From a virus, in UHGV virus genome UHGV-0468246: a stretch of DNA of 64,000 bases. One strand, written 5' to 3'. Within the stretch, counting starts at the first letter, position 1. Every line of letters begins with the position of its first letter. Of the stretch, positions 2,593 to 39,688 are shown in pieces. The position numbers and the translations under genes are program-made. The notes beneath the pieces are model-generated. The model was given only the letters and a program-made list of their open reading frames with translations. It searched no databases and was not told the origin of the DNA.

Positions 2593-2667
2593 CTCGCGCT
2601 CCTTCAATCCGATGTTGCCTCCATTGTATGAAAAAGGCGGGGTTCGCGCTATGGAGCTGGCGCGCCC

Positions 2668-2699
2668 TTGACATACGTTGCCCCCCCCCCAGTTACGAT
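2668..2699 (+). promoter_or_regulatory. Promoter of paralog unit 1: TTGACA (2668-2673), C10 tract (2681-2690), TACGAT (2694-2699)
   Basis: A consensus -35 hexamer, then a 20-nt spacer containing a 10-C homopolymer, then a TANNNT -10-like hexamer. It sits 35 nt upstream of a GGAGG ribosome-binding site and the ATG at 2735. The same layout recurs upstream of all four paralogs. Confidence 0.55.
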
Positions 2700-2734
2700 A
2701 GTCCCGAAACGGAGGCTGATGCGGAGGAGCGGCA

Positions 2735-3175
2735 ATGGCGGTGTTGAAGTATCGAGGTTCGGGCGGAACTATCCAGACCCTCTTGGACGTGACCGGCACG
2801 CTGGCGCGCATCGGCGCGTTGGAGACGAAGACGAACAACCTCCAAACGACCGTCAACACCCTCAACGCCTCCTCCGGCTGGAAAAGGCTGTCGAAGAACT
2901 GCTGGTACAAGAAGGTCGGCCTGTGGTGCATAGTCCAATGCGACTACATAAGCCTGTCGGCGAGCACGTGGAAGACCCTCGGAACCCTCCCTGCCGGTTA
3001 CAGGCCGGTGATCACGGGGCTGACCGACGAGTTCAAAGTCGTGTCGGGCGCGGCGTTCCATCGCGGCGAGAACAACATAGGCCTAATCGAGATTAACGGC
3101 TCCGGCGTGGTGAGCATGTACGCGACCGTCGCGAGCGATTATTGGTCTGCGAACATCGTGTTCCCCTGCGCTTGA
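2735..3175 (+). CDS. Paralog 1 of a tandem small-protein family (146 aa). Conserved N-terminus MAxLKYRGxGG, variable C-terminal domain.
   Basis: ORF preceded by a GGAGG ribosome-binding site. The first ~35 aa resemble those of the ORFs at 3230, 3783 and 4288; the C-terminal ~110 aa are divergent. Confidence 0.65.
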   Translation: MAVLKYRGSGGTIQTLLDVTGTLARIGALETKTNNLQTTVNTLNASSGWKRLSKNCWYKKVGLWCIVQCDYISLSASTWKTLGTLPAGYRPVITGLTDEFKVVSGAAFHRGENNIGLIEINGSGVVSMYATVASDYWSANIVFPCA

Positions 3176-3202
3176 CATTCTTTGCCCCCCCCCAGTTACC
3201 AT
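3172..3202 (+). promoter_or_regulatory. Promoter of paralog unit 2: TTGACA (3172-3177), C9 tract (3185-3193), TACCAT (3197-3202)
   Basis: Same layout as unit 1 with a 19-nt spacer containing a 9-C tract. GGAGGG ribosome-binding site, then ATG at 3230. Confidence 0.55.
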
Positions 3203-3229
3203 TGTCTGGTAAACGGACGGAGGGCTGCA

Positions 3230-3730
3230 ATGGCGAAGTTGAAGTACCGCAAAGGCTCTGAAATATTCGAGATTTTCGACACGGACGACATCAAGGCGCT
3301 CCAAACGAAGGTGGACGAGGTGCCAAGGCTCCCGACGTTCGGCTCGACCTCCGGCAACTGGCCCTTCGGAGTGGTCTACTGGAACGTCAGCGCCGACAAG
3401 AAGCGCCTGTCGCTCCATGGGAACATCTACTTCGACAGCTGCGGCGACGCGTGGAGCGCCATGAAGGCGATACCGGGCGGAGCGTCGAACGAGTGGGGCT
3501 TGCAGGTCGCAACTCCGCTCGGAGCGCAATCCAAAGCCCTCTGGATACCTGCCGTCGGCTTCTCCACCACGAACTCCACCATATCGGCCCAGAACTTCGG
3601 TCGCCTTACCATGAAGATAGGCACCGACGGCTACTGCTACGTATTCCCGACGACGACAAAGCCGGAGGGCGACGGCCCGTTCTCGTGCTTCATAGATTGC
3701 TGGTACATGAGCATAGCGGACTACGCTTGA
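3230..3730 (+). CDS. Paralog 2 (166 aa). Starts MAKLKYRKG, with a Trp/Tyr/Cys-rich C-terminal domain.
   Basis: The track ORF 3182..3730 begins at a TTG inside the poly-C tract. The ATG at 3230, preceded by a GGAGGG ribosome-binding site, is the likely start. The N-terminus matches the paralog family. Confidence 0.65.
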   Translation: MAKLKYRKGSEIFEIFDTDDIKALQTKVDEVPRLPTFGSTSGNWPFGVVYWNVSADKKRLSLHGNIYFDSCGDAWSAMKAIPGGASNEWGLQVATPLGAQSKALWIPAVGFSTTNSTISAQNFGRLTMKIGTDGYCYVFPTTTKPEGDGPFSCFIDCWYMSIADYA

Positions 3731-3757
3731 CATTTTCTGCCCCCCCCCTGTTACGAT
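3727..3757 (+). promoter_or_regulatory. Promoter of paralog unit 3: TTGACA (3727-3732), C9 tract (3740-3748), TACGAT (3752-3757)
   Basis: Same layout, 19-nt spacer. Ribosome-binding site AAGGAAGGG, then ATG at 3783. Confidence 0.55.
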
Positions 3758-3782
3758 CTTCGCCGATGAAAGGAAGGGTCGA

Positions 3783-4226
3783 ATGGCTATCATCAAGTAC
3801 AGGGGCAGCGACGGCGTTGTCGAACTGCTCGACGTGGGTGCGCTGCTGGGGCGGGTGAGCGGCTTGGAGGCCAAGACGGCATCGTTCGAGCGGGCGACAT
3901 CGGGGATATGGAAATACGAGAAGCGCTCCGACGGCACCTGCGTCTGCGAGGGCCAGCAGACGCGCACGGTCAACATAGAGAACATATATTCGGGGAACAT
4001 CTACTACGGCGACTTCGCCGCCGTCTCGTTCCCCAGCGGGCTGTTCACCGCAGTGCCGGACGTTCGCGCGACGATTCAATCGGCACCAGTGACCGTGTGG
4101 GTCGCGACGGTCTCGAACTCGAAGCCGTCAACGTCGTCAACGCAGGCGGTGCGCCTGCTGTCGGGCGGCCCGGAGACGAGCATATCCGTCACGGTCTCCT
4201 ACCGCGCGGTCGGTCGCTGGAAGTAG
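3783..4226 (+). CDS. Paralog 3 (147 aa). Starts MAIIKYRGSDGVVELLDV.
   Basis: ORF with a ribosome-binding site. Conserved N-terminus and a distinct C-terminal domain. Confidence 0.65.
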   Translation: MAIIKYRGSDGVVELLDVGALLGRVSGLEAKTASFERATSGIWKYEKRSDGTCVCEGQQTRTVNIENIYSGNIYYGDFAAVSFPSGLFTAVPDVRATIQSAPVTVWVATVSNSKPSTSSTQAVRLLSGGPETSISVTVSYRAVGRWK

Positions 4227-4228
4227 CC

Positions 4229-4259
4229 TTGACTTTCCGTGCCCCCCCCCTGTTACGCT
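4229..4259 (+). promoter_or_regulatory. Promoter of paralog unit 4: TTGACT (4229-4234), C9 tract (4242-4250), TACGCT (4254-4259)
   Basis: Same layout. Ribosome-binding site GGAAGGGAGAGGG, then ATG at 4288. Confidence 0.5.
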
Positions 4260-4287
4260 TTCCCGAAACACTCGGAAGGGAGAGGGA

Positions 4288-4761
4288 ATGGCGAAGCTGA
4301 AGTACAGGGGCACGGGCGGCGTGGTCGAGCTTCTTGACATCTCGAACGTTCTCAACCGCCTGTCGTCGCTCGAAGCCAAGATGACGGCGGTCGAGACAAA
4401 GCTGACGGTCAAGTCCGACGGTTTATGGCGTTATCTCGTCCTCGGCTCCTTCGTCATCGGATGGCGCACCGACCGTTTCGTCGTGCCGCAATGGAACTCG
4501 TGGGGCAATCTCTGGGAAAGCTCCGCAAAGCTCTCTTCGGTCATCTATCCGGGCGGCTATCAGGGGAAGTTCTCGCAAGTCGCCCTGTTCTGCAACGCCA
4601 AGAACGTCGGAGAGGTCACATCGTGCGGCGTGGAGTTCGAGGACAGCTCGACCCCGGACGTTCTCAACAAGTTTCCCAGCGTGTACCTGCTGCGCCCGAA
4701 CAACGCGGGCACGAACGTGACGTACGACGTGTACCGCATGTTCATAGGTCAGCTCAAATGA
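4288..4761 (+). CDS. Paralog 4 (157 aa). Starts MAKLKYRGTGGVVELLDISNVLNRLSSLEAK.
   Basis: ORF with a ribosome-binding site. Its N-terminus is closest to paralogs 1 and 3. Confidence 0.65.
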   Translation: MAKLKYRGTGGVVELLDISNVLNRLSSLEAKMTAVETKLTVKSDGLWRYLVLGSFVIGWRTDRFVVPQWNSWGNLWESSAKLSSVIYPGGYQGKFSQVALFCNAKNVGEVTSCGVEFEDSSTPDVLNKFPSVYLLRPNNAGTNVTYDVYRMFIGQLK

Positions 4762-4845
4762 CGGCTTGACAACCTCCGCCCCAGCTGAACAGAACGTCGT
4801 ACGCGACCGAAGTGCCCGTCAACTTGATTGGCGGCGTAAAAAAAA

Positions 4846-4867
4846 GAACCCCTCTCGCGAGGGGTTC
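4846..4867 (-). terminator. Rho-independent terminator after the endolysin gene
   Basis: Hairpin GAACCCCTC-tcgc-GAGGGGTTC, followed on the minus strand by a T8 run (complement of the A8 at 4838-4845). Confidence 0.75.
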
Positions 4868-4883
4868 TTCATTCGCTGCGGCT

Positions 4884-6053
4884 TTACAGGTAGATGACCT
4901 GACCGGGGTAGATCACGTTCGGGTCGGAGATGCCGTTCTTCGCGGCGAGGCCCATGTAGTTGGAACCCCAGCCGTTGCTCGCGGCGATTGCGGAAAGGTT
5001 GTCGCCCTCCCGAACCGTGTAGGTTCCGCCTCCGCCGACCTCCGCCGCCGCGCCGCCGTTGGTCAGGGCGATGTTGCCGATGTCGATGGCTGCGGTCACC
5101 TGACCGTCTCGACCGATCACCGCGCGGCGACCGTCCAGCTCCATCACGACGTAGGTGCCGTGGACGGCGAGCGGGGTGCCGTTCTCGTCAACGGGCGTGA
5201 CGACCTTGACCAGCGAGCCGACCGAGATTGTCGGGGAGCCGCCGGAGCCGCCGCCGACCTTCGCGAGGTTGGAAGCGTCGATGGCCGCCGTGACCTGACC
5301 GCCGCGACCGATCACGATGCGGTTGCCGGACACCTCCATCACCTCGTAGGTGCCGGAGGTCGCGAGCGACGTGCCGTTCACATCGACGGGGTTGGTCACG
5401 GTCACGATGTCGCCGACGCTGAAGGAGGCCGACGGCGCTGGCTCCGGGGAAGGCTCCGGCGGCACGTAGCTGCCGCCGTGAATCTCCTGCGGGAAGTCCC
5501 TGTAGCACTCGTTCGCGTCCAGAGGGCCGATGCCGCCGATGTAGGCGGTCGAGGTGTACTGCCAGATGTCCGCCGTGCCGTTGTAGGACAGGTCGGCACC
5601 GTACTCGGCGACCCAAGCGGTGTAGGGCAGGATGCGCATGTCCTGCGCGTTCGCGTTGTAGCGCCCGGTGTACCAGCCGAACCAGTACCCGGCGGCCTCG
5701 ATCTGCGGGCCGACGACCTCGCACGCGCGACGGTAGAACCATTCCAGACCCGCCTCCTCAACGTCGAGGTAGGCGGGGAAGCCCATCTCGGACGGGTCGG
5801 GGAGCAGGCGCAGCATGTGGGCCGCCTCGCTGTTCGCCATGGAATCGTTCGACGCGTAAGAGTACAGGTACACGCCGAAGGGGATGCCGAGGCGCTTGCA
5901 CTCGGACATGTTGCGATGGTACTGCCGGTCGTCTTGGTTCGCGTAGTCGCTGCCGTAGCCGCAGGACAGGATTGCCCCGTCGATTCGGCCCACGAGGGCA
6001 TCCCAGTTGATGGTGCCCTGATGGTGCGATACGTCGATGAGCGTCATTGTCAT
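4884..6053 (-). CDS. Endolysin: GH25 muramidase, two ~50-aa internal repeats, C-terminal LysM
   Basis: N-terminus IDVSHHQG...GVYLYSYA matches the GH25 lysozyme signature. Two repeats of the form G(D/S)IVTVTNPVD..GT...GTY.VME. The C-terminus YTVREGDNLSAIAA...YPGQVIYL is a LysM domain. Confidence 0.85.
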   Translation of the reverse strand: MTMTLIDVSHHQGTINWDALVGRIDGAILSCGYGSDYANQDDRQYHRNMSECKRLGIPFGVYLYSYASNDSMANSEAAHMLRLLPDPSEMGFPAYLDVEEAGLEWFYRRACEVVGPQIEAAGYWFGWYTGRYNANAQDMRILPYTAWVAEYGADLSYNGTADIWQYTSTAYIGGIGPLDANECYRDFPQEIHGGSYVPPEPSPEPAPSASFSVGDIVTVTNPVDVNGTSLATSGTYEVMEVSGNRIVIGRGGQVTAAIDASNLAKVGGGSGGSPTISVGSLVKVVTPVDENGTPLAVHGTYVVMELDGRRAVIGRDGQVTAAIDIGNIALTNGGAAAEVGGGGTYTVREGDNLSAIAASNGWGSNYMGLAAKNGISDPNVIYPGQVIYL

Positions 6054-10196: not shown

Positions 10197-10240
10197 GTAA
10201 GATAAGAAGTAAAGAGAATAAATTAAGAAAAGAAATTAAG
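10197..10240 (+). repeat. AT-rich intergenic motif copy, plus orientation
   Basis: GTAAGATAAGAAGTAAAGAGAATAAATTAAGAAAAGAAATTAAG. Confidence 0.6.
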
Positions 10241-14329: not shown

Positions 14330-14623
14330 ATGATCTACCAGTTGGAGGCCATGCACGACGCGAAGAAGTCGTTCTACGGGAAGGCGCTCGTGGAATCGGG
14401 GGGGGGCACCCTGACGCTGTACAGCTACGGCGCTAAGGTGGCCGAGACGCAGGGGCAGGGCCGCATCGCGCTCTACCCGGACGCGGACTACAGCCCGACC
14501 ACGCGCAGGCACGTGAAGGAGTTCGTCAAGCAGCAGGCCGGGAAGTCCATATCGACCGAGGAGCTGCGCGCCGTCGTCGATGGGCGCATGCGCTTCGAGG
14601 ACGCGGGCCAGCCGCTCGCGTAG
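14330..14623 (+). CDS. Hypothetical protein (97 aa) with an internal G9 tract
   Basis: AGGAGG ribosome-binding site plus ATG at 14330. The G9 at 14398-14406 encodes ESGGGT. In frame with the spurious long ORF 13859..14623. Confidence 0.5.
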   Translation: MIYQLEAMHDAKKSFYGKALVESGGGTLTLYSYGAKVAETQGQGRIALYPDADYSPTTRRHVKEFVKQQAGKSISTEELRAVVDGRMRFEDAGQPLA

Positions 14624-14624
14624 C

Positions 14625-14650
14625 GGGGGGGGGGCTTTCGGCCCTCCCCT
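14625..14650. terminator. Convergent terminator hairpin built from a G10 run (14625-14634) and CCCTCCCC
   Basis: GGGGGGGGGGCTTTCGGCCCTCCCC between the end of the plus-strand gene (14623) and the end of the minus-strand gene (14650). Confidence 0.45.
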
Positions 14651-17454: not shown

Positions 17455-17823
17455 TCACAGAAGCGGCGGCTGTTCCCAAGAGAACGTCTCGCCGTTTCTA
17501 AGCCTCACAGATTCAATCCTAGTTGCAGGGGGGGGGTCGTCCGCCTTCCCCGCCTCCTGCGGCATCTGGGGCACCTTTGCGGGCGCTTTCCAGTCGTCTT
17601 TGGTGTGGTACTCCGACGGGTGCCGCTCGAACTTCTGCAAGTAGTCGAGAATCTTCCCGCACGAATCGTGCCCGTAGCGGTAGAGCTTGCGCACCACCAC
17701 GCACGTCAGAACCGGGTCTACCTCGTTCTCCAAGAAGCAGTCGAGGAGCGGCTTCGGGTCGTCCGGGCCGCACCTCTCCAACGCTTCGAGGAGTTCGCGG
17801 TAGCCCTTCCTCTCACCGGGCAC
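17455..17823 (-). CDS. Hypothetical protein (122 aa) with a C9 coding tract near its 3' end
   Basis: The minus-strand poly-C (plus G9 at 17528-17536) encodes DDPPPAT. Confidence 0.45.
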   Translation of the reverse strand: MPGERKGYRELLEALERCGPDDPKPLLDCFLENEVDPVLTCVVVRKLYRYGHDSCGKILDYLQKFERHPSEYHTKDDWKAPAKVPQMPQEAGKADDPPPATRIESVRLRNGETFSWEQPPLL

Positions 17824-19975: not shown

Positions 19976-20555
19976 CGCATCCTGTTGAAGAGCGGTGGAA
20001 AAGCAAAGGGGCGGCCCGATGGCCGCCCCTCTCAATCGCCCTGAAGCCCCCCCCCGGCGCTGCTCTTCCAGCGCCTCGTCCACGCGCCTCTCGATGCGGC
20101 CTTCCACGAGCCAGCACACGACCTCCGGCACCGTGAACGGATTGGAGGCGTGCCCTCCCGTAACCTCGTCGTAGACCTTGGGCACGATGTCGAGCAGCAC
20201 GCTGTAGTCGTGCAGCTCCGCAAGCACCTTCTCCTTCGAGAGCGCGCCGTCCTCGTCGGTCACGAGCCGCAGCCAGAACTCCTCGTCGAGCTCGCGCCTT
20301 TCGCCCCGCTTCTTCTCCGCGACCGCGCGCCCGGTCGTGTGCTCCGTTCCGGGGAACGGCTCGAACGTCACCGTCCCGTCGCCCGACCCGTGCAGCACCG
20401 TCGCGCCCTCGTAGCAGCCGTTGCACACGTCCATGTGCGCGCCGAGCGCGTACGGCTCCGTCTTCTGGCCCCATCCGTTGCGGTCGAGCCATACGGGCAC
20501 CACAACGCCGACGCGGATGTCTCCGTGGCCGAACTCGCCTCCGCACACCTCGCAC
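19961..20555 (-). CDS. Hypothetical protein (C-terminal part of track ORF 19961..20950; start uncertain) with a G9 coding tract
   Basis: CEVCGGEFGHGD...EVVCWLVEGRIERRVDEALEEQRRGGASG. The poly-G (plus C9 at 20047-20055) encodes RRGGAS near the 3' end. Confidence 0.4.
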
Positions 20556-20979: not shown

Positions 20980-21206
20980 GCCTTTCTCCGCACCACGGGC
21001 AGAACGCCATGCCCTGCCCTTTGAGAACGTTCACCGAATCTAAGCACTCGCAATCATAGTCGAAGTCGATGTCCCGGAGGCCGAGTACCCATTGCCCGTC
21101 GGGAAAGGACGAACGCCCCTCATCGGGCCGGTATCTCCGGAGCGAGAAGCCCTTCGGCATCTTCCGGCACCGGTGCGTCTCGAAACCTGCATGTCGCGGG
21201 TCTCCG

Positions 21207-21415
21207 TCAGTCATAGCTCCACTCCCCCAACTCCACTTCCTCTCCGCAATGCGGGCACTCCACGCTCCCCCAGTCGTCCTGCCAGCATTCCGGCTCGTCA
21301 ACGTCCTCGAACGGCACGCCGGTCTGCCATCTGCAATGCGGGCACGTGAACGTGATGTCCACCGGCGCGCTGTTGATCGTGAAGTCGGCCTTCTCCTCGC
21401 GGCTCGTCATATCCT
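21207..21415 (-). CDS. Small zinc-ribbon protein (~69 aa, MTSREEKADF...)
   Basis: CPHCRW...CPHCGEE motif. C-terminal part of the track ORF 21207..21860. Confidence 0.4.
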
Positions 21416-21853
21416 TCCACCGTTCCTCTCCCTCGCGGCCTTTGCGCGAATCTCGGCGTACATGCGCTCCTCGTCCTCGCGCAGTATGCGGTAGGCGAGC
21501 CGCAGCTGTTCGAGGTCGAAGTAGCCGAAATGGCACTCCTCGACGGGTATGCCCATCCTGCCCGCCAGCCATTCGTACTGGCGCGTACGCTCCTTGCGCT
21601 TGTTCGGAGCGCCCAGCCACCGCCTGTCGAACAGCCGGTGGCAGAACTGCTTGCCGAGCCTCATGCGGTCGTCGGCCAGAAGCCCGAACGCCTCCTTCGG
21701 CCTCGGCACGTGCGTCCCGACGTACGCGCCGCACTCCGTGCAGCGGTAGCACCACCCGCTGCCGCGCTTGATGCCGTACACCTTCCTGTTGGGCACGTAC
21801 TCGACGCGCCCGCCGCACAGGTTGCACACGGTCGGCCTCTTCGGCGGAATCAT
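21407..21853 (-). CDS. Hypothetical zinc-finger protein (148 aa)
   Basis: CNLCGG...CYRCTECGAY motif. Confidence 0.45.
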   Translation of the reverse strand: MIPPKRPTVCNLCGGRVEYVPNRKVYGIKRGSGWCYRCTECGAYVGTHVPRPKEAFGLLADDRMRLGKQFCHRLFDRRWLGAPNKRKERTRQYEWLAGRMGIPVEECHFGYFDLEQLRLAYRILREDEERMYAEIRAKAARERNGGRI

Positions 21854-22650
21854 GCGCCAAGCTCCTTCCTGAACGCGCGGGATACCGCCTCGAACAGTAT
21901 GCCGTCGAGGAGCGCGTCCACGCTCTCGTCCGTTCTAAGGCCCCGTTCCTCGCAGAACGCGTCCGCCTTCGAGGAGATGCGCCTGCACGCCTCCTGCGCC
22001 GTCTCCGTGGCCTCTGCGGCGGTCATGCCGTCCCCGTCCCTCTTCACGCGAAGCAGCTCCGGGTGTCCCGACATGTCCAAGCACTCGCCGTAGGGCGCTC
22101 CCGCGACGTATCGGTCGATCATGATGTCGAGGCGCAGGATGTGGGAGAGCTGCTTCGGGTCGTAGCCGTAGCGCTCTATCCAAGGCATGCGGCTCGGGTA
22201 CTCGTGCGTGAGCGCGTTCAGCTTCTCGTGCGCCATGCCCTTCATGCACTTGACCGCCCGACCGGGGCAGTAGCGCGCGATCTCCTCGCGGCGGCGCAGC
22301 AGCTCCATCCACAGGTCGGCGTAGTCGTGGTTGAACAGGTGCCACTCCGTGAACAGAATCTCAACGAAGTTCACGTTCTGCTTGCGGAACGTCTTGAAGT
22401 ACTCGCGGATGTCCTTCACGTCGCAGTGCTCGCCGTTGCCCATCACGTGGGTGCGGCTCACCGCCTGACGGTTCAGCACGACATCCTCGAAGCATGGCAG
22501 CACCAGCAGCTTGCTGTCGATGTCGCTGCCCTCGTCGGAAAGCCCGTAGTTCTGCGAGCCTTGCAGGCAGATGGCGAACCAGTCGCCGCGCGCGTTTTTT
22601 TTAGATTCCTCCAAGTGCTCCGCGAGCCTCGCCGTCGGCAGGTCTTCCAT
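21850..22650 (-). CDS. Nucleotidyltransferase-fold protein (266 aa)
   Basis: GSQNYGLSDEGSDIDSKLLV fits the GS...D.D motif of DNA polymerase beta-type nucleotidyltransferases. Confidence 0.5.
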   Translation of the reverse strand: MEDLPTARLAEHLEESKKNARGDWFAICLQGSQNYGLSDEGSDIDSKLLVLPCFEDVVLNRQAVSRTHVMGNGEHCDVKDIREYFKTFRKQNVNFVEILFTEWHLFNHDYADLWMELLRRREEIARYCPGRAVKCMKGMAHEKLNALTHEYPSRMPWIERYGYDPKQLSHILRLDIMIDRYVAGAPYGECLDMSGHPELLRVKRDGDGMTAAEATETAQEACRRISSKADAFCEERGLRTDESVDALLDGILFEAVSRAFRKELGA

Positions 22651-22828
22651 ACTCTCTCCTCCTATCGTTCCAGAAGCGGACGGCGCGCTCGGGGTCGTTC
22701 AGGAAGCCCGTCTGGTTGCCGCACGCCTTGCAGCGCACGAACCACCTTGGCGGCTCCGTCCGGCCCGTCGCGTAGAGCGCCGCGCCGCCGCCGCATCCGC
22801 ATCGCTCTATTCTACTGGTAGATGTCAT
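22601..22828 (-). CDS. Lar-family restriction alleviation protein (75 aa)
   Basis: RCGCGGGAALY...WFVRCKACGNQTGF...AVRFWNDRR matches the Lar zinc-ribbon pattern. Confidence 0.6.
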   Translation of the reverse strand: MTSTSRIERCGCGGGAALYATGRTEPPRWFVRCKACGNQTGFLNDPERAVRFWNDRRREYGRPADGEARGALGGI

Positions 22829-23741
22829 AGTTCTCGCAGATTTCGCTCCAATTTTGGATAAGCCCCTGATAGCCGTCGCGCAGGTCGCGCAGCGTGCCCT
22901 TCTCCTCGTTCTCGCGCATCAGCACGTCGCGGTACAGCTCCTCGTCCCGGTACATCCGGACGTTCTCGTCTATGAGGCGGCTGATGACGCTGGGGTCGAG
23001 CGCGTCAAGCTCCCAGCATTCGTAGCCGAACCGCTCGATGTAGCCCTGCGCGCGGCTGTCCGACAGCTTCGTCGGGTTCGGCGGAGGCCCGAACTCCTCG
23101 ATCTGGTCGAGGTTCAGCGCGAGGCGGCGGAACTCAACGTCGTCGGCACTGAACAGCTCCAAGCGCGCCACGATGTCGCGGCTCATGTCCTTGCCGCTGG
23201 GGTCGTGGTCGCCGAGGTGCAGCAGCACCGCGTGCTGCCCAGCGTCGCAGCGCCGCTTCAGGCGCATGGCCGCTCCCCACAGCTCGCTCTGGCTGGTGTA
23301 GCCACGGCACGAGAAGCACGCAACGTCCAGCTTGTCGCTGATCTGCTCCACGATGCCTATGAGCGCGTCCTTCTCCACCCACACCTCGACGTAGTTCTCC
23401 TGCCCCTCCCAGTAGTCGATGTGGTACTGGCGGGCTATCGCGTCGATGATCTCCTGCGGCTCCTCCCAGTGCGGGCGGCGGCGCAGGTTGCGCGTGCGGT
23501 CTTCGATGGCGTGCCAATCGACGAGGCCCGCCAAGCGCGCGTCGTTGATGAGGTTGCCGAGGTTCTTGTAGCTGCGGATGTTGTTCGGGATGATGTCGCG
23601 CGACACCATCTGGTAGTAGAGCTGGCGCAGCGTCAGGCCGTACCCCTGCGCCTCGTACTCGGCCACTATGCCGTTGGCTATGCCGATGAGTTCCAGCTTG
23701 TCGTCGCGGAACGTCTTCTCGATGTACGCTATCTTAGGCAT
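22812..23741 (-). CDS. Spo11 / topoisomerase VI subunit A-like protein (mini-A, 309 aa): CAP tyrosine motif plus Toprim
   Basis: LRQLYYQMVS matches the R(D/Q)(I/L)YY catalytic-tyrosine motif. VEVWVEKDALIGIV carries the Toprim glutamate (vvEKd). HLGDHDPSG matches the Toprim DxDPxG motif. It overlaps the stop of the upstream GHKL gene by 8 nt. Confidence 0.6.
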   Translation of the reverse strand: MPKIAYIEKTFRDDKLELIGIANGIVAEYEAQGYGLTLRQLYYQMVSRDIIPNNIRSYKNLGNLINDARLAGLVDWHAIEDRTRNLRRRPHWEEPQEIIDAIARQYHIDYWEGQENYVEVWVEKDALIGIVEQISDKLDVACFSCRGYTSQSELWGAAMRLKRRCDAGQHAVLLHLGDHDPSGKDMSRDIVARLELFSADDVEFRRLALNLDQIEEFGPPPNPTKLSDSRAQGYIERFGYECWELDALDPSVISRLIDENVRMYRDEELYRDVLMRENEEKGTLRDLRDGYQGLIQNWSEICENYDIYQ

Positions 23742-24948
23742 CCTCGCCCTCCTTCTCCAAAAGCCCGTCTATCTCGTCGCGTATGAGGTGCATGCCGAAG
23801 AACCGCAGGTCGTCCGAGTTGTCGATGATCTCGCGAAGCTCGGCGCGCGCACGCTTCGACAGGCGCGGCTGCCCTTTGAGCCAGACGAGAATCTTCTTGT
23901 AGTCGCTCTTGCCGAAGGCGTTGACTGCGGCCTCCCTGCTGGCGTTCGACGACACCTTCGCCTCCAAGTCCTCGAACTCGTCGAGCGCGTCGTCGGCGAT
24001 GGCGATTATCTTGGAGACGATCTTGCTCTCCTCGTGGAACGCGCTCGCCTCGGCGCTGCCGCCGAGAACCTGCCACATGCCCTTCGTCCCGACGAACGTG
24101 CCCTCGTCAAGCCCGTTCTTCTCGAAGTAGTAGCGCTTGAAGCCCTCGCACTGGTCTTCGTCTATCTCGTCGAGGACGGCGCTTGCGTCGGACACGTCCA
24201 GATGCTTCTCGCCGAGCGAGTTGACGAGCAGGCTCACGTCCCCGCACGACGTGAGGGCGCGGGCCGTAAGCTCCTTCAGCTCGTAGTGGTTGATCGCCTT
24301 GCGGTCTCGGTCGAGGCTCACGTGCTCCGGCAGGAAGTCGTAGCCGTACGCGAAGCCGGTGTCCTCCTGCACGAACAGGCCGCCGACGTAGAACTTGCCC
24401 TTGTAGCGGCTCTCCAACATGATCGTCCCGTACTCGCTCTCGCGCTTCGCGCCGATGTCGCGGCCCATGAAGCGTTCGAGGGCTATGAACCTGTCCCCGA
24501 AGGAGCGCATCATGGCGGGCGAGATGCCGCCGATGCGGAACTCCGTGAACTCGCCGCCCGGAACGCCGGTCTCCTCCACGTCGATCTGCAACGATTCCTC
24601 GCCGAACGTCTCGGACAGGCGGAACTCCGGTGTCCAAGTCTCCGCGTCGGTGACGACCTTCACCGGCTTGCGCTCGCGCGTCAGCACCAGAAGCGCCAGC
24701 TTGTATCCCTCGCCGTACTTCCCGATGTAGCGCTCGTCGTCCTTGCCCGATTCGCCGAGCAGGAGCGTCGATGTCTTCAGTCGCGCGCCGTCGGTGAGGA
24801 TGGACAGCGTTTCGCGGTCGTACGACACGGACACCTCCGCCCCGTCCGCCTTCTGGTCGATGGCGTTCTGCAAAATCTCGCGGACTGCCTCCTCCACGCC
24901 CCAGCCGCTCACGTACTTGGGCGACAGGCTCAACTCGATGGTCTTCAT
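23734..24948 (-). CDS. GHKL (Bergerat-fold) ATPase, topoisomerase VI subunit B-like (404 aa)
   Basis: N-box EILQNAIDQ and G2 box IGKYGEGYKLAL. Lies immediately upstream of, and translationally overlapping, the Top6A-like gene. Preceded by ribosome-binding site, palindrome, -10-like box, AT-motif and terminator. Confidence 0.55.
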   Translation of the reverse strand: MKTIELSLSPKYVSGWGVEEAVREILQNAIDQKADGAEVSVSYDRETLSILTDGARLKTSTLLLGESGKDDERYIGKYGEGYKLALLVLTRERKPVKVVTDAETWTPEFRLSETFGEESLQIDVEETGVPGGEFTEFRIGGISPAMMRSFGDRFIALERFMGRDIGAKRESEYGTIMLESRYKGKFYVGGLFVQEDTGFAYGYDFLPEHVSLDRDRKAINHYELKELTARALTSCGDVSLLVNSLGEKHLDVSDASAVLDEIDEDQCEGFKRYYFEKNGLDEGTFVGTKGMWQVLGGSAEASAFHEESKIVSKIIAIADDALDEFEDLEAKVSSNASREAAVNAFGKSDYKKILVWLKGQPRLSKRARAELREIIDNSDDLRFFGMHLIRDEIDGLLEKEGEDA

Positions 24949-24962
24949 GGCCCTCCTTGCTC

Positions 24963-24978
24963 TCGATTAAATAATCGG
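24963..24978 (-). promoter_or_regulatory. 16-bp palindrome copy 4 (TCGATTAAATAATCGG) between the TGnTAAGAT -10-like box (24988-24998) and the ribosome-binding site of the GHKL gene
   Basis: Read on the minus strand: CCGATTATTTAATCGAGAGCAAGGAGGGCCATG. Confidence 0.6.
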
Positions 24979-25000
24979 CCTTGACCCATCTTACCACAAG

Positions 25001-25050
25001 CCTTAACTCTTGTCTTAACTTTTTCTTTCTTTTTTTATCTTACAAAAGAA
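25001..25050 (-). repeat. AT-rich motif copy, minus orientation, beside the terminator hairpin at 25053-25075
   Basis: Near-identical to the copy at 12087 (CTTAACTCTTGTCTTAACTTTTTCTTTCTTTTTTTATCTTACAAAAGAAA). Confidence 0.6.
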
Positions 25051-25052
25051 AA

Positions 25053-25075
25053 GGGGAGGGCTTGTGGCCCTCCCC
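25053..25075 (-). terminator. Hairpin GGGGAGGGC-ttgt-GGCCCTCCCC with a T-rich tail on the minus strand
   Basis: Stem-loop followed on the minus strand by TTTTCTTTTGT. Confidence 0.55.
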
Positions 25076-25076
25076 G

Positions 25077-25407
25077 TCACCACGCCGTCTGCCTGCGGAA
25101 CGGGCATCTCGTCCGAGAGCACGACTTCCTCGCCACCTCGACGGCGCAGCACGTGTTCGCCTGATCTCCGCACATAGGGGACGCCACGTGCCAGCCGGGG
25201 CCTAGAACCGTTTCGGCCAGCCGGTCGAGGGCGGCCTGCGCGTCGGTCGGCTGCGGCATGATGCCGTAGTCCCCGCCGTTGCCGGTCGCCCCGCTTTCGT
25301 CAACGAACGAGAGCGTGATCTGATACCCTCTGTTTATGTTGTCCATCTGCTGGTCGAAGTCCTTCTTCTCCATCTTGGTCGGGAACTTCGCCTCCATGCT
25401 CCCGCAT
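25077..25407 (-). CDS. Hypothetical protein (~110 aa, MEAKFPTKMEKK...)
   Basis: C-terminal part of the track ORF 25077..25616 from its first plausible ATG. Confidence 0.4.
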
Positions 25408-25414
25408 GCCGCCG

Positions 25415-26118
25415 TCACCCTTCGCATGCCCCTCCTATCTCCTCCAACGTCCTGCGCTTCATGTTGCCAAGCACCTCCTCCATGGCGACGAGCCGCCGCC
25501 AGCAGTCTGGCAGGTTCTCCTTGATCGCGCGCAGTTCCTTCTGGTTCTTGTTCTTGCAGCACCAGCACGACACCCTGTCCAAGATGTCGTACAGGCGCAC
25601 GCCGTCCTGCTCCCACTCATGGCCGTGGGCGTAGCACGCGGCGAGGCAGTCGGCCTCGCGCATGCCCCAGTCAGCGAGCGGGAAGCGCTTGTAGGGCTTG
25701 CGCTCCTTTTCGAGGCGCGCCGTCTCGTCTGCGGCTATGCCGACGTACACGGTCGCCCCCCCCAGCTCCCTCTCCGCATGGCGGTCTATCGCCCGCAGCT
25801 TCTCGGTCGTGCCCCAGCGGCACGGGCCGCCGCACCAGCCGTAGCCGTGCTTGTGGACTTCGCCGGTCTTCCGGCTTTTGACCGGGCGGCAGAACATGCT
25901 CCACCAGAACGGGTCTTTGGGGCGCAGCTCGACGTAGCGGATGCCGTTCTCGCGCAGCAGCGGCAGCATGCGGTCGCGCTCGGCGTAGATCGCGTCGAAC
26001 TCCATGCCCGTGTCGTAGAAGACAACCTCGTCGAGCGGCATGCCGCGCTCGATCAGGCCGTGCAGCATGGCGAGGCTGTCCTTGCCCCAGCTGACGCTTG
26101 CGATGCAGCGCTTCATGG
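25415..26118 (-). CDS. PAPS reductase / PP-loop ATP pyrophosphatase family protein (~234 aa)
   Basis: Probable start MKRCIASVSWGKDSLAM. The SWGKDS motif matches the PP-loop SGGKDS, followed by a CWCC cysteine cluster. An internal G8 tract (plus C8 at 25756-25763) encodes LGGAT. Confidence 0.65.
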
Positions 26119-26279
26119 CTACCCTTCCCTCTCGTCGGCGCGCCTGCGCCTCGCGGCCCTCTTGTCCTGCTCGGCCTTGCACTCCGGGCCGCAGTATTTC
26201 TGGTTGCGGGAGTTCTTCGCGAACGTCCTCCCGCACACCGGGCACGTCCCCGTGCCGCGCGCCTTCCAACCGGTCATCC
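26119..26279 (-). CDS. Small zinc-ribbon protein (~53 aa, MTGWKARGTGTCPVCGR...)
   Basis: C-terminal part of the track ORF 26119..26559. Confidence 0.35.
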
Positions 26280-26657
26280 CTCGCTCCTCTCCCTCGGCAT
26301 CCCTCCACGGTAAAGCCCCGCCTCCTTCAGTCGGCGCAGGGCGAGCCGCTGCCTCGCGTTGCACCGCCCTAGGGCGCAGTCGTTCCACACGGCCACGCAC
26401 CGGGTCATCTCGCACAGAGCGTCCATGCACCCGCAGGCGGGCAGCACGTCCCACGCCTGACCCTGCTCGACGAAGCCGCGCAGGCGCATCAGCTTGCGGA
26501 CGAGCCATTCCTGATGCGACGGGACGGCGTAGTGCGGCGTTCCTCCCTCGTCGATGCACACCTCCAAGTAGTTCACGAAGGTCGCCTTGTGCGTCTCGAT
26601 GTCGAAGGGGGAGCGCAGCACGCGCTGCTGCTCCGACGCTCCGGGGAGGCTACTCAT
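26274..26657 (-). CDS. Hypothetical protein (127 aa)
   Basis: ORF. Confidence 0.45.
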   Translation of the reverse strand: MSSLPGASEQQRVLRSPFDIETHKATFVNYLEVCIDEGGTPHYAVPSHQEWLVRKLMRLRGFVEQGQAWDVLPACGCMDALCEMTRCVAVWNDCALGRCNARQRLALRRLKEAGLYRGGMPRERSEG

Positions 26658-27075
26658 CGTCCGTCTCCGTGGTCATCCAGTCCTCGACGCTGCCAAGCTC
26701 GTCTGCGGCGCACAGGATGCGCGCGAAGGGGTACTCCGGCACCTCCATGTCGCCAGCCGCCTCCAAGCCGATCACGTCGTTCAGGAGGTCGTTCGCCTCC
26801 GTGACGGCGGCGCGCCAGTCCTTCTGCGCATCGACGCTCCCGTAGGTCGCCTCGAAGATGTCGGGCTTCACGGGGTACAGCTCCCCCTTGATGCCCTTCA
26901 CGATGTAGTCGCCCTTGCGCGCCGTCATGCTCCCTTCGAGCGTGCGCACCTTCGCCTCGCCGTCCGGGGTCAGGCGCAGAACGCCGCTCTCGAACGCGAC
27001 GTGCCCCCACTCCGGGGTCGCCTCCTCGCCGTAGCGCCACGCCTCGATCTCCAACGGCTTCTTCCTGTACCTCAT
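26650..27075 (-). CDS. Hypothetical protein (~141 aa, MRYRKKPLEIEAWRYG...)
   Basis: ORF. Confidence 0.4.
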   Translation of the reverse strand: MRYRKKPLEIEAWRYGEEATPEWGHVAFESGVLRLTPDGEAKVRTLEGSMTARKGDYIVKGIKGELYPVKPDIFEATYGSVDAQKDWRAAVTEANDLLNDVIGLEAAGDMEVPEYPFARILCAADELGSVEDWMTTETDDE

Positions 27076-27323
27076 CGCCCCTCCTCGTTTTCGCACTCGT
27101 CGCATCTGTCGCTCGTCGGCTCGTAGTCTCTTATCCCCAAGTCGAGCCAGTCGCGCAAGATGCGCAGCTTGCGCGTGTCGGGTTCCTCGGGGATGACGGC
27201 CTCGTAGCGGCCTCTCTCGTCTTCCAGCTCAATTCTCGGCATGTCGGCGCTCCTCTCAATCAGTCTCGTACCGCTTGATGTCCTCGCGCCAGCGCAGCTC
27301 GTCTCCGAACCCAACGCCTTCAA
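27072..27323 (-). CDS. Hypothetical protein (83 aa)
   Basis: ORF. Confidence 0.35.
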   Translation of the reverse strand: MKALGSETSCAGARTSSGTRLIERSADMPRIELEDERGRYEAVIPEEPDTRKLRILRDWLDLGIRDYEPTSDRCDECENEEGR

Positions 27324-27477
27324 GCTCGCCCGTGGAGACCACGCGCCCCTCGTCGTCCAGAGGGTACAGCGCCGTGTTGCCGTCGAACAGCGACACGACG
27401 GCTATGCGGTGCTTCAGCGTGAGGGCGGTCAGGTCTTCGAGGAACGCCGCAGCGTCCCTCGCGTCAGTCGTCCCCAT
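27256..27477 (-). CDS. Hypothetical protein (73 aa)
   Basis: ORF. Confidence 0.35.
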   Translation of the reverse strand: MGTTDARDAAAFLEDLTALTLKHRIAVVSLFDGNTALYPLDDEGRVVSTGELEGVGFGDELRWREDIKRYETD

Positions 27478-27757
27478 CGCAGCCGCCCTTCGGCTCGTCG
27501 AGCGCGGCCTGCGCGTCGCGCAGAGCGTCGGCGACCATGCGCCCCATGCGCCTAGCCCAGCAGAACAGCAGGAAGGCGCACAGCACGAGGAACGAGGCGT
27601 AGCACAGGAAGCCCCATGCCGCCCCGAACATCACGCCAGCGCCTATGGAGCCTACCAGCCCCGCAGCTCCGAACAGCAGGCCTCCCAGCAGCCACGAGCA
27701 GCCGATCAGCGCGTCCCCGTCCTTGTCGCTCTTGCTCACGTCGAACTCCATCCTCAT
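27464..27757 (-). CDS. Small membrane protein (97 aa, two predicted transmembrane segments)
   Basis: Two hydrophobic stretches: LIGCSWLLGGLLFGAAGLVGSIGAGVMFGAAWGFLCYASFLVLCAFLLF. Confidence 0.45.
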   Translation of the reverse strand: MRMEFDVSKSDKDGDALIGCSWLLGGLLFGAAGLVGSIGAGVMFGAAWGFLCYASFLVLCAFLLFCWARRMGRMVADALRDAQAALDEPKGGCDGDD

Positions 27758-28221
27758 CGCTCGCCCTCCGGCTCCGTCGGAAGCTCAATCCACCTCTTGC
27801 AGTTCTCCACGTTCTGGGAGAACGACAGCAGCACGTCGTCCCAGCCCTCCCCGTCGGGCGGAGGGCCGAAGCTGCAAGACACCCCGGTCTCGTGCCTCTC
27901 CCCCGTGATCGTCATGACGTAGGACAGGCGCGGCTCCTCCGCCCCGTCGCGCTTCAGCACGTCGAAGGCGTACTCGATGCCTATGGGCGTTCCAAGCCTC
28001 GCCTCCTCGCGCACCTTGGCGCGCATGCGCTCGACGACGGCCACGAACTCGTCCGGCACCCCCGCCTCGCGCATCTCCTTCTTCCACGCCCTCGGCCCCG
28101 GCTCAACGCCGGGGACGTACCGCTGCATGCTGACCGGCCCTTCCATCACAGCCCCTTCCTGTGCTCGTCGTCGAGGCGCGCGTACTCCCTGCGCTCCTTC
28201 TGCGTCGATGCGCGCAGGCAC
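27754..28221 (-). CDS. Hypothetical protein (155 aa or shorter)
   Basis: ORF. Confidence 0.4.
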   Translation of the reverse strand: MPARIDAEGAQGVRAPRRRAQEGAVMEGPVSMQRYVPGVEPGPRAWKKEMREAGVPDEFVAVVERMRAKVREEARLGTPIGIEYAFDVLKRDGAEEPRLSYVMTITGERHETGVSCSFGPPPDGEGWDDVLLSFSQNVENCKRWIELPTEPEGER

Positions 28222-28493
28222 GCCTCGGCCTCCTCGTCCGACACGTCGAGGCCGATGCCGTCGGGCGTGCGGAGCACGATGCGGCGCAGCCCGTTCTTCA
28301 ACGTGTACTTCATGTAGACCTTGACCGGCGTTCCCTCCGGCGTGACCACGGGCGCGCCGTCCTCCCCGTAGGTGGTCAGGTCGCAGTCGAGGGCGTAGAC
28401 GCTCCCCATGCGCTTAGTCATCGGCCCCTCCGATCTCCGCGTAGCAGCCGGGCCGCCAGCGCTCGCCCTCCACGTCCTCGGGCAGCGGCGCAA
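28146..28493 (-). CDS. Hypothetical protein (115 aa or shorter; likely starts MTKRMGSVYALD)
   Basis: ORF. Confidence 0.4.
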   Translation of the reverse strand: MRRCPRTWRASAGGPAATRRSEGPMTKRMGSVYALDCDLTTYGEDGAPVVTPEGTPVKVYMKYTLKNGLRRIVLRTPDGIGLDVSDEEAEACLRASTQKERREYARLDDEHRKGL

Positions 28494-28908
28494 CGGGGCG
28501 GATGTGCCCGTGCGAGACGTGCAACATGTCGCAGCGGTTGCCCAGCGGCTTCAGCTCCTCCATGGCGCGAAGGGCGCGCCGCACGGTCTCCGGCAGCTTG
28601 CGCGCGTCGTCGCGCACGCCGACCGAGATGCGCAGGGAGCGACCGTCGAACGGCACGCTTTCGTACGGGCAGACGGCCCTGCCGCATGACAGCTGCGCGC
28701 AGAACTCGACCGTCGTGCGCATCTCCTCGCCCTCGATCTCCCCGGACGTGTTGCCGTAAAGAAGGTAGCCGCCGATCTTGCCGTTGCCCTTCGCCTCGCG
28801 CAGCATGTTCGAGCAGCGGCGCACGGCATCGACGCTCTCGTCGTCGTCGATGCCGAACGCCTCCAAGAAGCGCTTGGCCTCCTTCAGCTCCTTGCCGTTG
28901 CCTCTCAC
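28414..28908 (-). CDS. Hypothetical protein (~164 aa, GTG start)
   Basis: AAAGGAG ribosome-binding site plus GTG at 28908, directly downstream of palindrome copy 5 (28924-28939). Confidence 0.45.
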   Translation of the reverse strand: MRGNGKELKEAKRFLEAFGIDDDESVDAVRRCSNMLREAKGNGKIGGYLLYGNTSGEIEGEEMRTTVEFCAQLSCGRAVCPYESVPFDGRSLRISVGVRDDARKLPETVRRALRAMEELKPLGNRCDMLHVSHGHIRPVAPLPEDVEGERWRPGCYAEIGGADD

Positions 28909-31116: not shown

Positions 31117-31129
31117 GTCTGCCCCCCCC

Positions 31130-31315
31130 CTACTCGAACGCAGCGTCGCGGGCAGCGTCCACCATGTCGTCGTAGTACATGGCCTCGCGCTCCTCGAACC
31201 GCTCCCAGTACGCGCTCGCCTCGGCCTCGTACTCCTCGTAGGTGTCGAAGTCCTCCGGGTCTGGCTGGTTCTCCTCGGCCCTCATGCGGGCGTAGGCTGC
31301 TGTGAGGTTCGCCAT
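31130..31315 (-). CDS. Hypothetical acidic protein (61 aa)
   Basis: ATG at 31315, preceded by GAAGGAGCAAAGACC and palindrome copy 7. Confidence 0.45.
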   Translation of the reverse strand: MANLTAAYARMRAEENQPDPEDFDTYEEYEAEASAYWERFEEREAMYYDDMVDAARDAAFE

Positions 31316-35256: not shown

Positions 35257-35267
35257 TTGCCCCCCCC

Positions 35268-39661: not shown

Positions 39662-39688
39662 TCCGTGCCCCCCCCCTATCCATGTCTC

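Follow-up and report, generated by a model that had tools for sequence, protein, structure and literature searches.

Tandem receptor-binding-type gene cassettes behind candidate poly-C-controlled promoters in an LE2-3-like phage of Eggerthella lenta

Introduction

Why would a lytic phage place four consecutive small genes behind four separate copies of a predicted promoter, each of which carries an uninterrupted run of nine or ten cytosines between its two hexamers? This question is raised by the region between positions 2593 and 4880 of a 64,000-nt stretch of UHGV virus genome UHGV-0468246 (the whole stretch is referred to below as the window). A preliminary description of this DNA, made from the sequence alone, had proposed that the C tracts form a phase-variable promoter switch controlling alternative host-specificity or decoration proteins. 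The region is best explained as a locus for accessory host recognition in a lytic, LE2-3-like phage of Eggerthella lenta, organized as a recombination-prone array of cassettes. As for the C tracts themselves, the reading that fits best is that hypermutable promoters control alternative receptor-binding proteins, and we hold it about as firmly as we doubt it.

Over the length that can be aligned, the window shares 98.4–99.6% identity with Eggerthella phage LE2-3 (MW679026.1), whose circular record of 111,961 bp names E. lenta DSM 2243 as the host and activated sludge from Cork as the source. No publication on phage LE2-3 was found; a 2026 preprint on an E. lenta phage describes a different phage, a 44-kb siphovirus. 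The array was compared with a set of 41 loci containing 136 promoter units, which were gathered by protein searches, look-ups of the encoding contigs and two collection scans, and which take in two more divergent phages of ~120 kb. Of the matches from a pattern scan of viral contigs, only L008 proved to be a relative; the four others (L005, L006, L007, and L009) were unrelated, had arisen by chance and were discarded. Relatives are referred to by such L numbers where they have to be told apart.

Four Tandem Units of Predicted Promoter and Gene

The motif TTGACNNNNNNNNCCCCCCCCC (TTGAC-N8-C9) occurs exactly four times in the window, at 2668, 3172, 3727, and 4229, always on the + strand, whereas shuffles of the window contain 0.57 copies on average and never more than 2. 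A repeat search recovers the same four sites as a single family of 37-nt direct repeats with spacings of 504, 555, and 502. They belong to four head-to-tail units of ~500 bp each on the + strand between 2593 and 4880, and every unit consists of TTGAC(A/T), 7 nt, a C10 or C9 tract, (a/t)GT, the hexamer TAC(G/C)(A/C)T, a leader of 25–35 nt that contains a GGAGG-type ribosome-binding site, and an ATG. All four C tracts are located 45–55 nt upstream of the start codons.

The predicted promoter of unit 1 (2668–2699, + strand) reads TTGACA (2668–2673), tacgttg, C10 (2681–2690), agt and TACGAT (2694–2699), with a spacer of 20 nt, and precedes cassette W1 (2735–3175, + strand; 146 aa), which corresponds to LE23_39 of LE2-3 and whose stop codon lies within the next TTGACA. 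In unit 2, the predicted promoter (3172–3202, + strand) is composed of TTGACA, ttctttg, C9 (3185–3193), agt and TACCAT and has a spacer of 19 nt; it is followed by cassette W2 (3230–3730, + strand; 166 aa), which begins at an ATG behind GGAGGG, while the longest open reading frame (ORF) would open earlier at a TTG. The third predicted promoter (3727–3757, + strand) contains TTGACA, ttttctg, C9 (3740–3748), tgt and TACGAT, again over 19 nt, and stands before cassette W3 (3783–4226, + strand; 147 aa), an ORF that joins the N-terminal module described below to a lectin-like beta-sandwich domain of the tail-fibre tip type. The fourth (4229–4259, + strand) is made up of TTGACT, ttccgtg, C9 (4242–4250), tgt and TACGCT with a 19-nt spacer and belongs to the ORF of cassette W4 (4288–4761, + strand; 157 aa), the last of the array in the window. 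The distances from TTGAC(A/T) to TAnnnT accordingly amount to 20, 19, 19, and 19 nt, the canonical distance being 17 nt. The four tandem units and the ORF sizes of 146–166 aa given in the preliminary description are thereby borne out, with C10 present once and C9 three times, and the four ORF calls agree with the gene annotation of LE2-3.

A fifth promoter persists as a relic at 4766–4790 on the + strand, where TTGACA, acctccg, CCCC, and agc can still be recognized and no gene follows. This relic aligns base for base with a live promoter, TTGACG-gca-C9/12-agc-TATGAT, which precedes a 160-aa cassette in L038 and L040, in line with the earlier suggestion that the degenerate copy is a product of duplication and decay. 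At this site of gene loss, only an interrupted C4 is left of the tract, and the −10 hexamer has disappeared; in L013 and L037, the relic promoter region is absent altogether.

A standard sigma-70 scan with spacers of 16–18 nt reports none of the four predicted array promoters, because their spacers of 19–20 nt fall outside this range. A custom promoter scan identifies the 19–20-nt geometry at the array and finds few other promoters of the TTGAC type in the window. Since the upstream neighbour gene is divergent, transcription into the array would have to begin at the predicted array promoters. A terminator scan detected no terminator-like sites between the cassettes, the sole + strand site in the array being the one at 4843–4870, and each gene is therefore expected to be transcribed from its own promoter and from all promoters upstream of it.

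Two potential coding features on the opposite strand were considered and rejected. An antisense ORF of 305 aa (3083–4000, − strand) spans two cassettes; the homologues and fold models available for the + strand genes led to its dismissal as an artefact of high GC content, and the + strand array proteins also show divergence of the synonymous type between paralogues. In three units, moreover, the reverse complement of TTGACAT together with the tract reads G9-N6-ATG and mimics a ribosome-binding site with a start codon, and the ATG in question was dismissed as a real start on the same grounds of high GC content.

Cassette Proteins Combine a Common N-Terminus With Different Heads

BLAST and hhalign comparisons confine the homology among W1–W4 to the first ~38–46 residues (hhalign probabilities of 98, 98, and 86%), which upholds the view that the proteins are alike only at the N-terminus, for which ~35 residues had been claimed. 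In the models of W1 and W3, this N-terminal module forms a beta-hairpin (~residues 3–17) followed by a helix. The MxLKYR motif at the start of the array proteins also opens LE23_99, which is encoded in the baseplate/tail module of LE2-3, and this hints that the common N-terminal adaptor may dock to the tail. The module of ~40 aa would serve both trimerisation and docking.

None of the four proteins has a match in Pfam, and W1 gives only a weak match to a PHROG family whose function is unknown. The model of W1, with a predicted local distance difference test (pLDDT) score of 84, shows the N-terminal beta-hairpin, a long helix and then a head of the type found in lactococcal-phage receptor-binding proteins. 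Foldseek ranks 1–15 are all occupied by the receptor-binding protein of TP901-1 or bIL170 with a probability of 1.00, E-values of 1.4e-3 to 1.2e-2 and root-mean-square deviations of 3.3–3.5 over 105–118 columns; TP901-1 ORF49 itself is matched with a probability of 1.00 and an E-value of 1.4e-3. Template modelling (TM) scores against the lactococcal heads are 0.45 when normalized by query length and up to 0.62 by target length, and the receptor-binding proteins of phage p2 and Listeria phage PSA follow at lower ranks. Given the modest E-values, the relationship of W1 to the lactococcal heads is treated as a resemblance of folds rather than as proven homology.

W3 matches the C-terminal residues 566–699 of the 700-residue tail fiber family phrog_2712 with an E-value of 1e-12, and a profile search against 1.8 billion representatives returned 427 families. 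In many of these families, the W3 domain forms the last ~110 aa of proteins of 500–970 aa, and the long proteins that were tested carry Prophage_tail, DUF859 or Gp58 domains. The AlphaFold2 model of W3, which is of moderate quality (pLDDT 69), retrieves the R1/R2 pyocin fibre, whose feet it resembles, and H-type lectins in Foldseek; among the fold matches, those to Helix pomatia agglutinin, SLL-2 and discoidin count as marginal (E-values of 0.03–0.7, TM scores of ~0.4–0.59). W3 has no Pfam match to the H-type lectin profile PF09458.

For W2 and W4, a sequence search of the Protein Data Bank yielded nothing meaningful. A homologue search with W4 found matches within this phage group only, and the C-terminal domain of W2 likewise has no detectable relatives outside the group. 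Cassettes of related phages match the C-termini of PHROG families annotated as "tail fiber," "receptor binding tail protein," "minor tail protein," and "lectin," and the 97-aa cassette of L025 shows a weak match to Pfam H_lectin and a match to a lectin PHROG. In LE2-3, the counterparts of W1–W4 (LE23_39 to LE23_36) are annotated as "structural protein," "hypothetical," "tail fiber protein," and "hypothetical," respectively. The folds of W1 and W3 and the PHROG matches of relatives agree with the proposal of the preliminary description that the cassettes specify interchangeable proteins of the receptor-binding type, which have a shared N-terminal module. Taken together, sequence comparisons and models make interchangeable binding heads on a common adaptor a well-supported interpretation.

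Cassette Turnover Between the Fibre and Lysin Genes

The array is bordered on its left by the 5' part of a collagen-like tail fibre gene (1–2592, − strand), which runs off the window and has its start codon at 2592; the divergent orientation of this neighbour had been recognized correctly before. The gene corresponds to LE23_40, annotated as "putative tail fiber protein 1" (1256 aa), and full-length relatives contain the Pfam Collagen domain. A comparison of the C-terminus of the fibre with the cassettes found no homology. To the right, a bidirectional intrinsic terminator (4843–4870) separates the end of the array from a convergent gene for a GH25-LysM endolysin (4884–6053, − strand; Pfam Glyco_hydro_25 5e-15, LysM 7e-11; phrog_291 endolysin 3e-52).

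Across the 41 loci, the site between the fibre and lysin genes holds 1, 2, 4, 5, or 6 cassettes, which fall into at least 12 families, and the GH25-LysM endolysin forms the right-hand boundary of the site in all relatives. In the divergent relative L037, W4 is the sole cassette. Variation in cassette number is seen among the relatives L016–L018, L019–L024, L025–L027, L028–L030, L037, L038–L040, and L045–L046. Relatives also encode chimeric or extended products, namely P0004 (194 aa), P0187 (247 aa), and P0194 (227 aa). The chimeric products and the turnover of cassettes suggest recombination within the conserved promoter and N-terminal module. The left boundary varies as well: in L017, a gene of 147 aa (582–1025, − strand) is inserted between the fibre-side gene and the first cassette.

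Length, Purity and Variation of the C Tracts

All 136 units of the comparative set show TTGAC(N), a variable flank, a C tract, 2–5 nt and TAnnnT; the pattern used for collection required the tract, and its universality was not separately audited. Tract lengths range from C6 to C13, with C9 in 99 of the units, C8 in 14 and C10 in 12. The tract consists of pure C in 132 of the 136, the remaining 4 being interrupted by one A, while the non-tract spacer bases beside it occur in more than 20 variants. Together with the shrunken tract of the relic, this indicates that selection maintains the presence and purity of a tract that is itself mutable.

Lengths nevertheless differ between closely related phages. 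Units 1–4 carry tracts of 10, 9, 9, and 9 nt in the window, 9, 9, 8, and 9 nt in LE2-3 and 8, 9, 10, and 9 nt in L008. In the lineage of L010 and L038, orthologous tracts compare as C7 with C12, as C9 with C12, and as C9, C10, and C11 among samples, and the assemblies of sequencing run ERR1995245 by two pipelines give C8 and C9 at one and the same tract. When the window is aligned with LE2-3, 7 of the 45 indels fall within G/C tracts, which make up ~0.2% of the aligned bases (p ~9e-12). The description of the C tracts as indel hotspots thus finds support in length differences between near-identical phages.

The variation is unevenly distributed over the array. The unit 1 tract, compared over 24 loci, is C9 in 18, C8 in two, C10 in two and interrupted in two, and the unit 3 tract is C8 in LE2-3, C10 in L008 and C6-A-CC in L014 and L015. 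In contrast, the unit 2 tract is C9 in 17 of 17 loci, although differences in its flank result in spacers of 15, 19, or 21 nt, and the unit 4 tract is C9 in 18 of 18. Tracts other than pure C9 are therefore found in 10 of 35 loci for units 1 and 3 as opposed to none of 35 for units 2 and 4 (Fisher p 9e-4), a contrast between tracts of equal length that indicates selection on length at some units.

Two promoter geometries can be distinguished. In the long-flank geometry, 7 nt precede and 3 nt follow the tract, so that C9 gives a spacer of 19 nt; in the short-flank geometry, 2–4 nt precede and 2–3 nt follow it, and C9 gives 14–15 nt. Among the 136 units, 87 have a spacer of 19 nt, 16 have one of 18 nt and none has one of 17 nt. 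The interrupted tracts keep the total spacer at 19 nt in L014 and L015 and at 18 nt in L028 and L029, and the C12 and C13 tracts of short-flank promoters result in spacers of 18, 18, and 19 nt.

G/C Runs and Repeats Outside the Array

Runs of G or C in the window have a bimodal length distribution, with 58 runs of 5 nt, only 2, 0, and 1 runs of 6, 7, and 8 nt, and then 9 runs of 9 nt and 2 of 10 nt. The 11 runs of at least 9 nt compare with an expectation of 0.47, and 4 of these 11 are concentrated in the 2-kb array. Tracts outside the array are located at 14398–14406, 14625–14634, 17528–17536, 20047–20055, 25756–25763, 31122–31130, 35260–35268, and 39668–39676, and several G/C tracts of the window differ in length from LE2-3, for example C9 versus C5 at 20047. 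Read on the − strand, the tracts at 31122–31130, 35260–35268, and 39668–39676 are G9 runs 3–6 nt upstream of an ATG, where they occupy the Shine-Dalgarno position of three genes, which encode proteins of 147 aa, 160 aa and, in the case of DNA polymerase III alpha, 1077 aa.

Just beyond the end of the window, at 71291–74373 of the LE2-3 record (L004), lies a cluster of six paralogous small tail-collar-like genes (LE23_96–98 and LE23_100–102) together with LE23_99, and G8–G9 tracts are found at several of its gene junctions. LE23_97 goes out of frame exactly at a G8 tract within the ORF (L004:2068–2075, outside the window); G7 or G10 at this position would restore the conserved C-terminus of the family, ...HNNMPPY..W(E/K)RT.

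Apart from the G/C runs, an AT-rich repeat, TTGTCTTAACTTTTTCT, with flanking CTTA(A/C) motifs occurs in nine copies (at 10215, 12095, 13485, 19931, 25010, 29131, 41942, 42919, and 50057) as opposed to 0.01 expected in this genome of 64% GC, and probably represents the phage's own class of promoters or regulator-binding sites. A segment of ~7.5 kb (21007–28574) is absent from LE2-3, the flanking alignment blocks being 98–99.6% identical.

A Candidate Mechanism and Its Alternatives

How, then, might the tracts act? Under hypermutable promoter control, each cassette would possess its own promoter of the sigma-A type, with a pure C tract that follows TTGAC and ends 2–5 nt before the −10 hexamer. 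The tract would be a hotspot of slipped-strand mispairing, and the gain or loss of Cs would shift the distance between TTGAC and −10 one base at a time and thereby alter promoter strength. Phage populations would then contain heritable and reversible variants that produce different amounts or sets of receptor-binding proteins. As an active upstream promoter would also transcribe all downstream cassettes, the expressed set would be a run ending at the last cassette, which is W4 in the window. The active spacer is probably ~18–19 nt, since this length is modal, is held by the interrupted tracts and is restored by C12–C13 in short-flank promoters, and a spacer of 12–16 nt is probably weak or off. 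If so, units 2–4 of the window would be on and unit 1 would be one step too long, and L025, L038, L010, and L045 would hold mixtures of on and off cassettes. Speculatively, an A-like geometry of poly(dG).poly(dC) could shorten the effective spacer and account for an optimum of 18–19 rather than 17 nt. The fuller version of the proposal, in which a recombining array of one to six cassettes, each switched or tuned by its hypermutable poly-C promoter, lets one phage stock continuously give rise to virions with different receptor-binding sets, is advanced tentatively, as we think it somewhat more prone to fail than to hold.

A number of observations weigh against promoter switching. C9 is the consensus in 73% of the units, and units 2 and 4 show no other length in any of 35 loci. 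Such dominance is unlike the scatter of ON and OFF states among isolates at classical contingency loci, and the invariance at units 2 and 4 argues for a length constraint as much as for free switching. The hexamer spacing varies from 12 to 21 nt over the 136 units and is never 17 nt, and W2 is always preceded by C9 although its spacer may be 15, 19, or 21 nt long, which implies either that TTGAC is not a classical −35 element or that many copies are off. The preliminary description places the tract in a −35/−10 spacer; by motif, it does lie between TTGAC(N) and TAnnnT, but the spacing of 19–20 nt here and 12–21 nt in relatives departs from the canonical 17 nt. Since there are no terminators between the cassettes, the genes cannot switch fully independently of each other. 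G/C tracts of 9–10 nt in unrelated contexts show that tract formation may in part be a mutational property of the genome. Moreover, many of the loci come from near-identical strains, some of them from the same samples, so that they do not represent independent cases; an assembly gives only the length that prevails, and in short-read data a homopolymer may be miscalled by 1. The earlier idea of a phase-variable promoter switch is supported in part, by the polymorphism of tract length, and weakened by the prevalence of C9 (99 of 136 units) and by the lack of terminators between cassettes.

The prevalence of one length would be expected if the tract were a fixed promoter element, with ~C9 as a required structural or recognition feature, for example a rigid A-like spacer segment or a site for a phage or host factor. 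All cassettes would then be co-expressed late, each virion would carry several receptor-binding proteins, and length differences would represent rare slips, slightly deleterious or neutral, or errors of assembly. Besides the C9 counts, overall and at units 2 and 4, this agrees with the 19-nt spacer in 87 of 136 units, with the persistence of C9 in lineages that share only ~50% identity in their cassette proteins, with interrupted tracts that still total 18–19 nt, and with a distance from tract to −10 that is fixed at 2–5 nt while the distance to TTGAC varies. A strict requirement is difficult to reconcile, however, with C6–C13 in live promoters of intact genes and with orthologous tracts that differ by up to 5 nt between samples, and the modal length of 9 at tracts outside promoters speaks for an equilibrium of mutation and not for a specific binding site; nor did the analysis turn up a candidate for a factor that would bind there. 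We regard a fixed element as possible but rather unlikely. Carried to its end, the equilibrium argument would turn the promoter tracts into neutral passengers, since G/C runs of at least 6 nt would expand to ~9–10 nt wherever they arise. The bimodal run lengths, the G9 tracts that take the Shine-Dalgarno position in front of three unrelated genes, among them that for DNA polymerase III alpha, and the differences from LE2-3 at tracts throughout the genome all fit such a by-product. Neutral passengers would not be expected at the same place relative to −10 in all 136 collected units from divergent lineages, as pure C in 132, while the neighbouring bases diverge, nor to decay after gene loss as in the relic; in addition, tracts of equal length are unequal in variability, and 4 of the 11 tracts of at least 9 nt cluster in the 2-kb array. 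A pure mutational origin is accordingly thought improbable.

A further alternative places the function of the tract in the RNA. In a read-through transcript, the Cs could pair with the next ribosome-binding site and block translation, and each gene would be translated only from transcripts of its own promoter. At the junctions of units 2 and 3, four tract Cs indeed pair with the GGAGGG/GGAAGGG site in minimum-free-energy or centroid folds; the pairing is inconsistent across the four units, though, and the junctions do not fold more stably than dinucleotide shuffles (z −0.45 to +1.19), which makes an RNA-level insulator highly improbable. Two classical routes to variation were also considered. 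An invertible segment or shufflon was rejected: it is contradicted by the + strand orientation of all cassettes, and the inverted matches present are short, 72–88% complementary and never flank a cassette; in this respect, the distinction from invertible segments drawn in the preliminary description is confirmed by the common orientation and the lack of flanking inverted repeats. A diversity-generating retroelement is disfavoured because the heads have unrelated folds and are not variants of one template, although no search of the window aimed at a recombinase or reverse transcriptase was made.

Comparison With Known Systems

The vlp genes of Mycoplasma hyorhinis form a tandem family in which a poly-A tract lies between −35 and −10, the 5' module and the N-terminal coding region are conserved, the surface-exposed remainder is divergent, and expression is combinatorial; the layout of a conserved 5' module and a divergent remainder is shared with the phage array. 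Unlike the array, the vlp system uses poly-A with a defined ON length of 17 nt, encodes lipoproteins of a cellular organism and consists of genes believed to be transcriptionally independent. The fim promoters of Bordetella need the activator BvgA, whereas no activator is known for the array, which is carried by a lytic phage and has TTGAC as a −35-like element. The array, with its predicted promoters, resembles fim2, fim3, fimX, and fimN in that paralogous adhesin genes carry poly-C just upstream of −10, overlapping the promoter; in Bordetella, the length of this C-stretch is polymorphic among strains and alters the transcript level (PMC1891110). In contrast to the array, the fim genes are bacterial, chromosomal, and dispersed, and they have longer tracts (C7–C19) and a conserved "fim box."

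Among phages, homopolymer switching has so far been described inside ORFs. PolyG tracts are reported from receptor-binding genes of Fletchervirus, which infect Campylobacter (Sorensen et al., 2021, as cited in PMC12633550), and T2 and T4 possess hypermutable homopolymers within ORFs that act as contingency loci (PMC12633550, in which promoters are not mentioned). As in the array, hypermutable homopolymers are here borne by phages; in these phages, they create subpopulations that differ in host recognition or gene content. The tracts of these phages act by frameshift within ORFs, however, whereas the four array tracts lie upstream of ORFs and thus do not belong to the in-ORF polyG type; the G8 tract of LE23_97, from the same type of phage, does. 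The proteins themselves are comparable to TP901-1 ORF49/BppL and the receptor-binding proteins of p2 and bIL170, with ~150–170 aa, an N-terminal stem and a C-terminal beta-barrel head, and natural swapping of heads on a conserved N-terminus is indicated for lactococcal receptor-binding proteins by the titles of structures 3d8m and 3da0. The lactococcal proteins show no sequence-family match to the array proteins and are encoded by one gene in a late operon, as opposed to genes with individual predicted promoters. The Mu G and P1 C segments, shufflons and diversity-generating retroelements reach the outcome that is proposed for the array, namely alternative receptor-binding ends in one population.

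The capsule of E. lenta phase-varies under phage pressure (PMC13131767), which offers a plausible selective setting for the array. If promoter control is real, the locus would provide a virus with a contingency system that acts on transcription and is matched to a host with a phase-variable capsule (PMC13131767), and together with the in-ORF G tracts of the tail-collar paralogues it would form part of a genome-wide homopolymer strategy for host recognition. The idea is directly testable, as LE2-3 and E. lenta DSM 2243 constitute a cultivable pair and genetic tools exist for this medically relevant gut bacterium. For phage-based microbiome editing, it would mean that host range could drift by single-base slips hidden in consensus assemblies, and the cassette array is also a natural collection of small binding domains that share one adaptor. 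Control at the promoter level, if true, would add a further route of host-range bet-hedging beside invertible segments, retroelements, and in-ORF tracts. While the principle of a homopolymer within a promoter has precedent, the combination of a location in a promoter, a lytic phage as the carrier and a recombining set of receptor-binding cassettes as the target is new.

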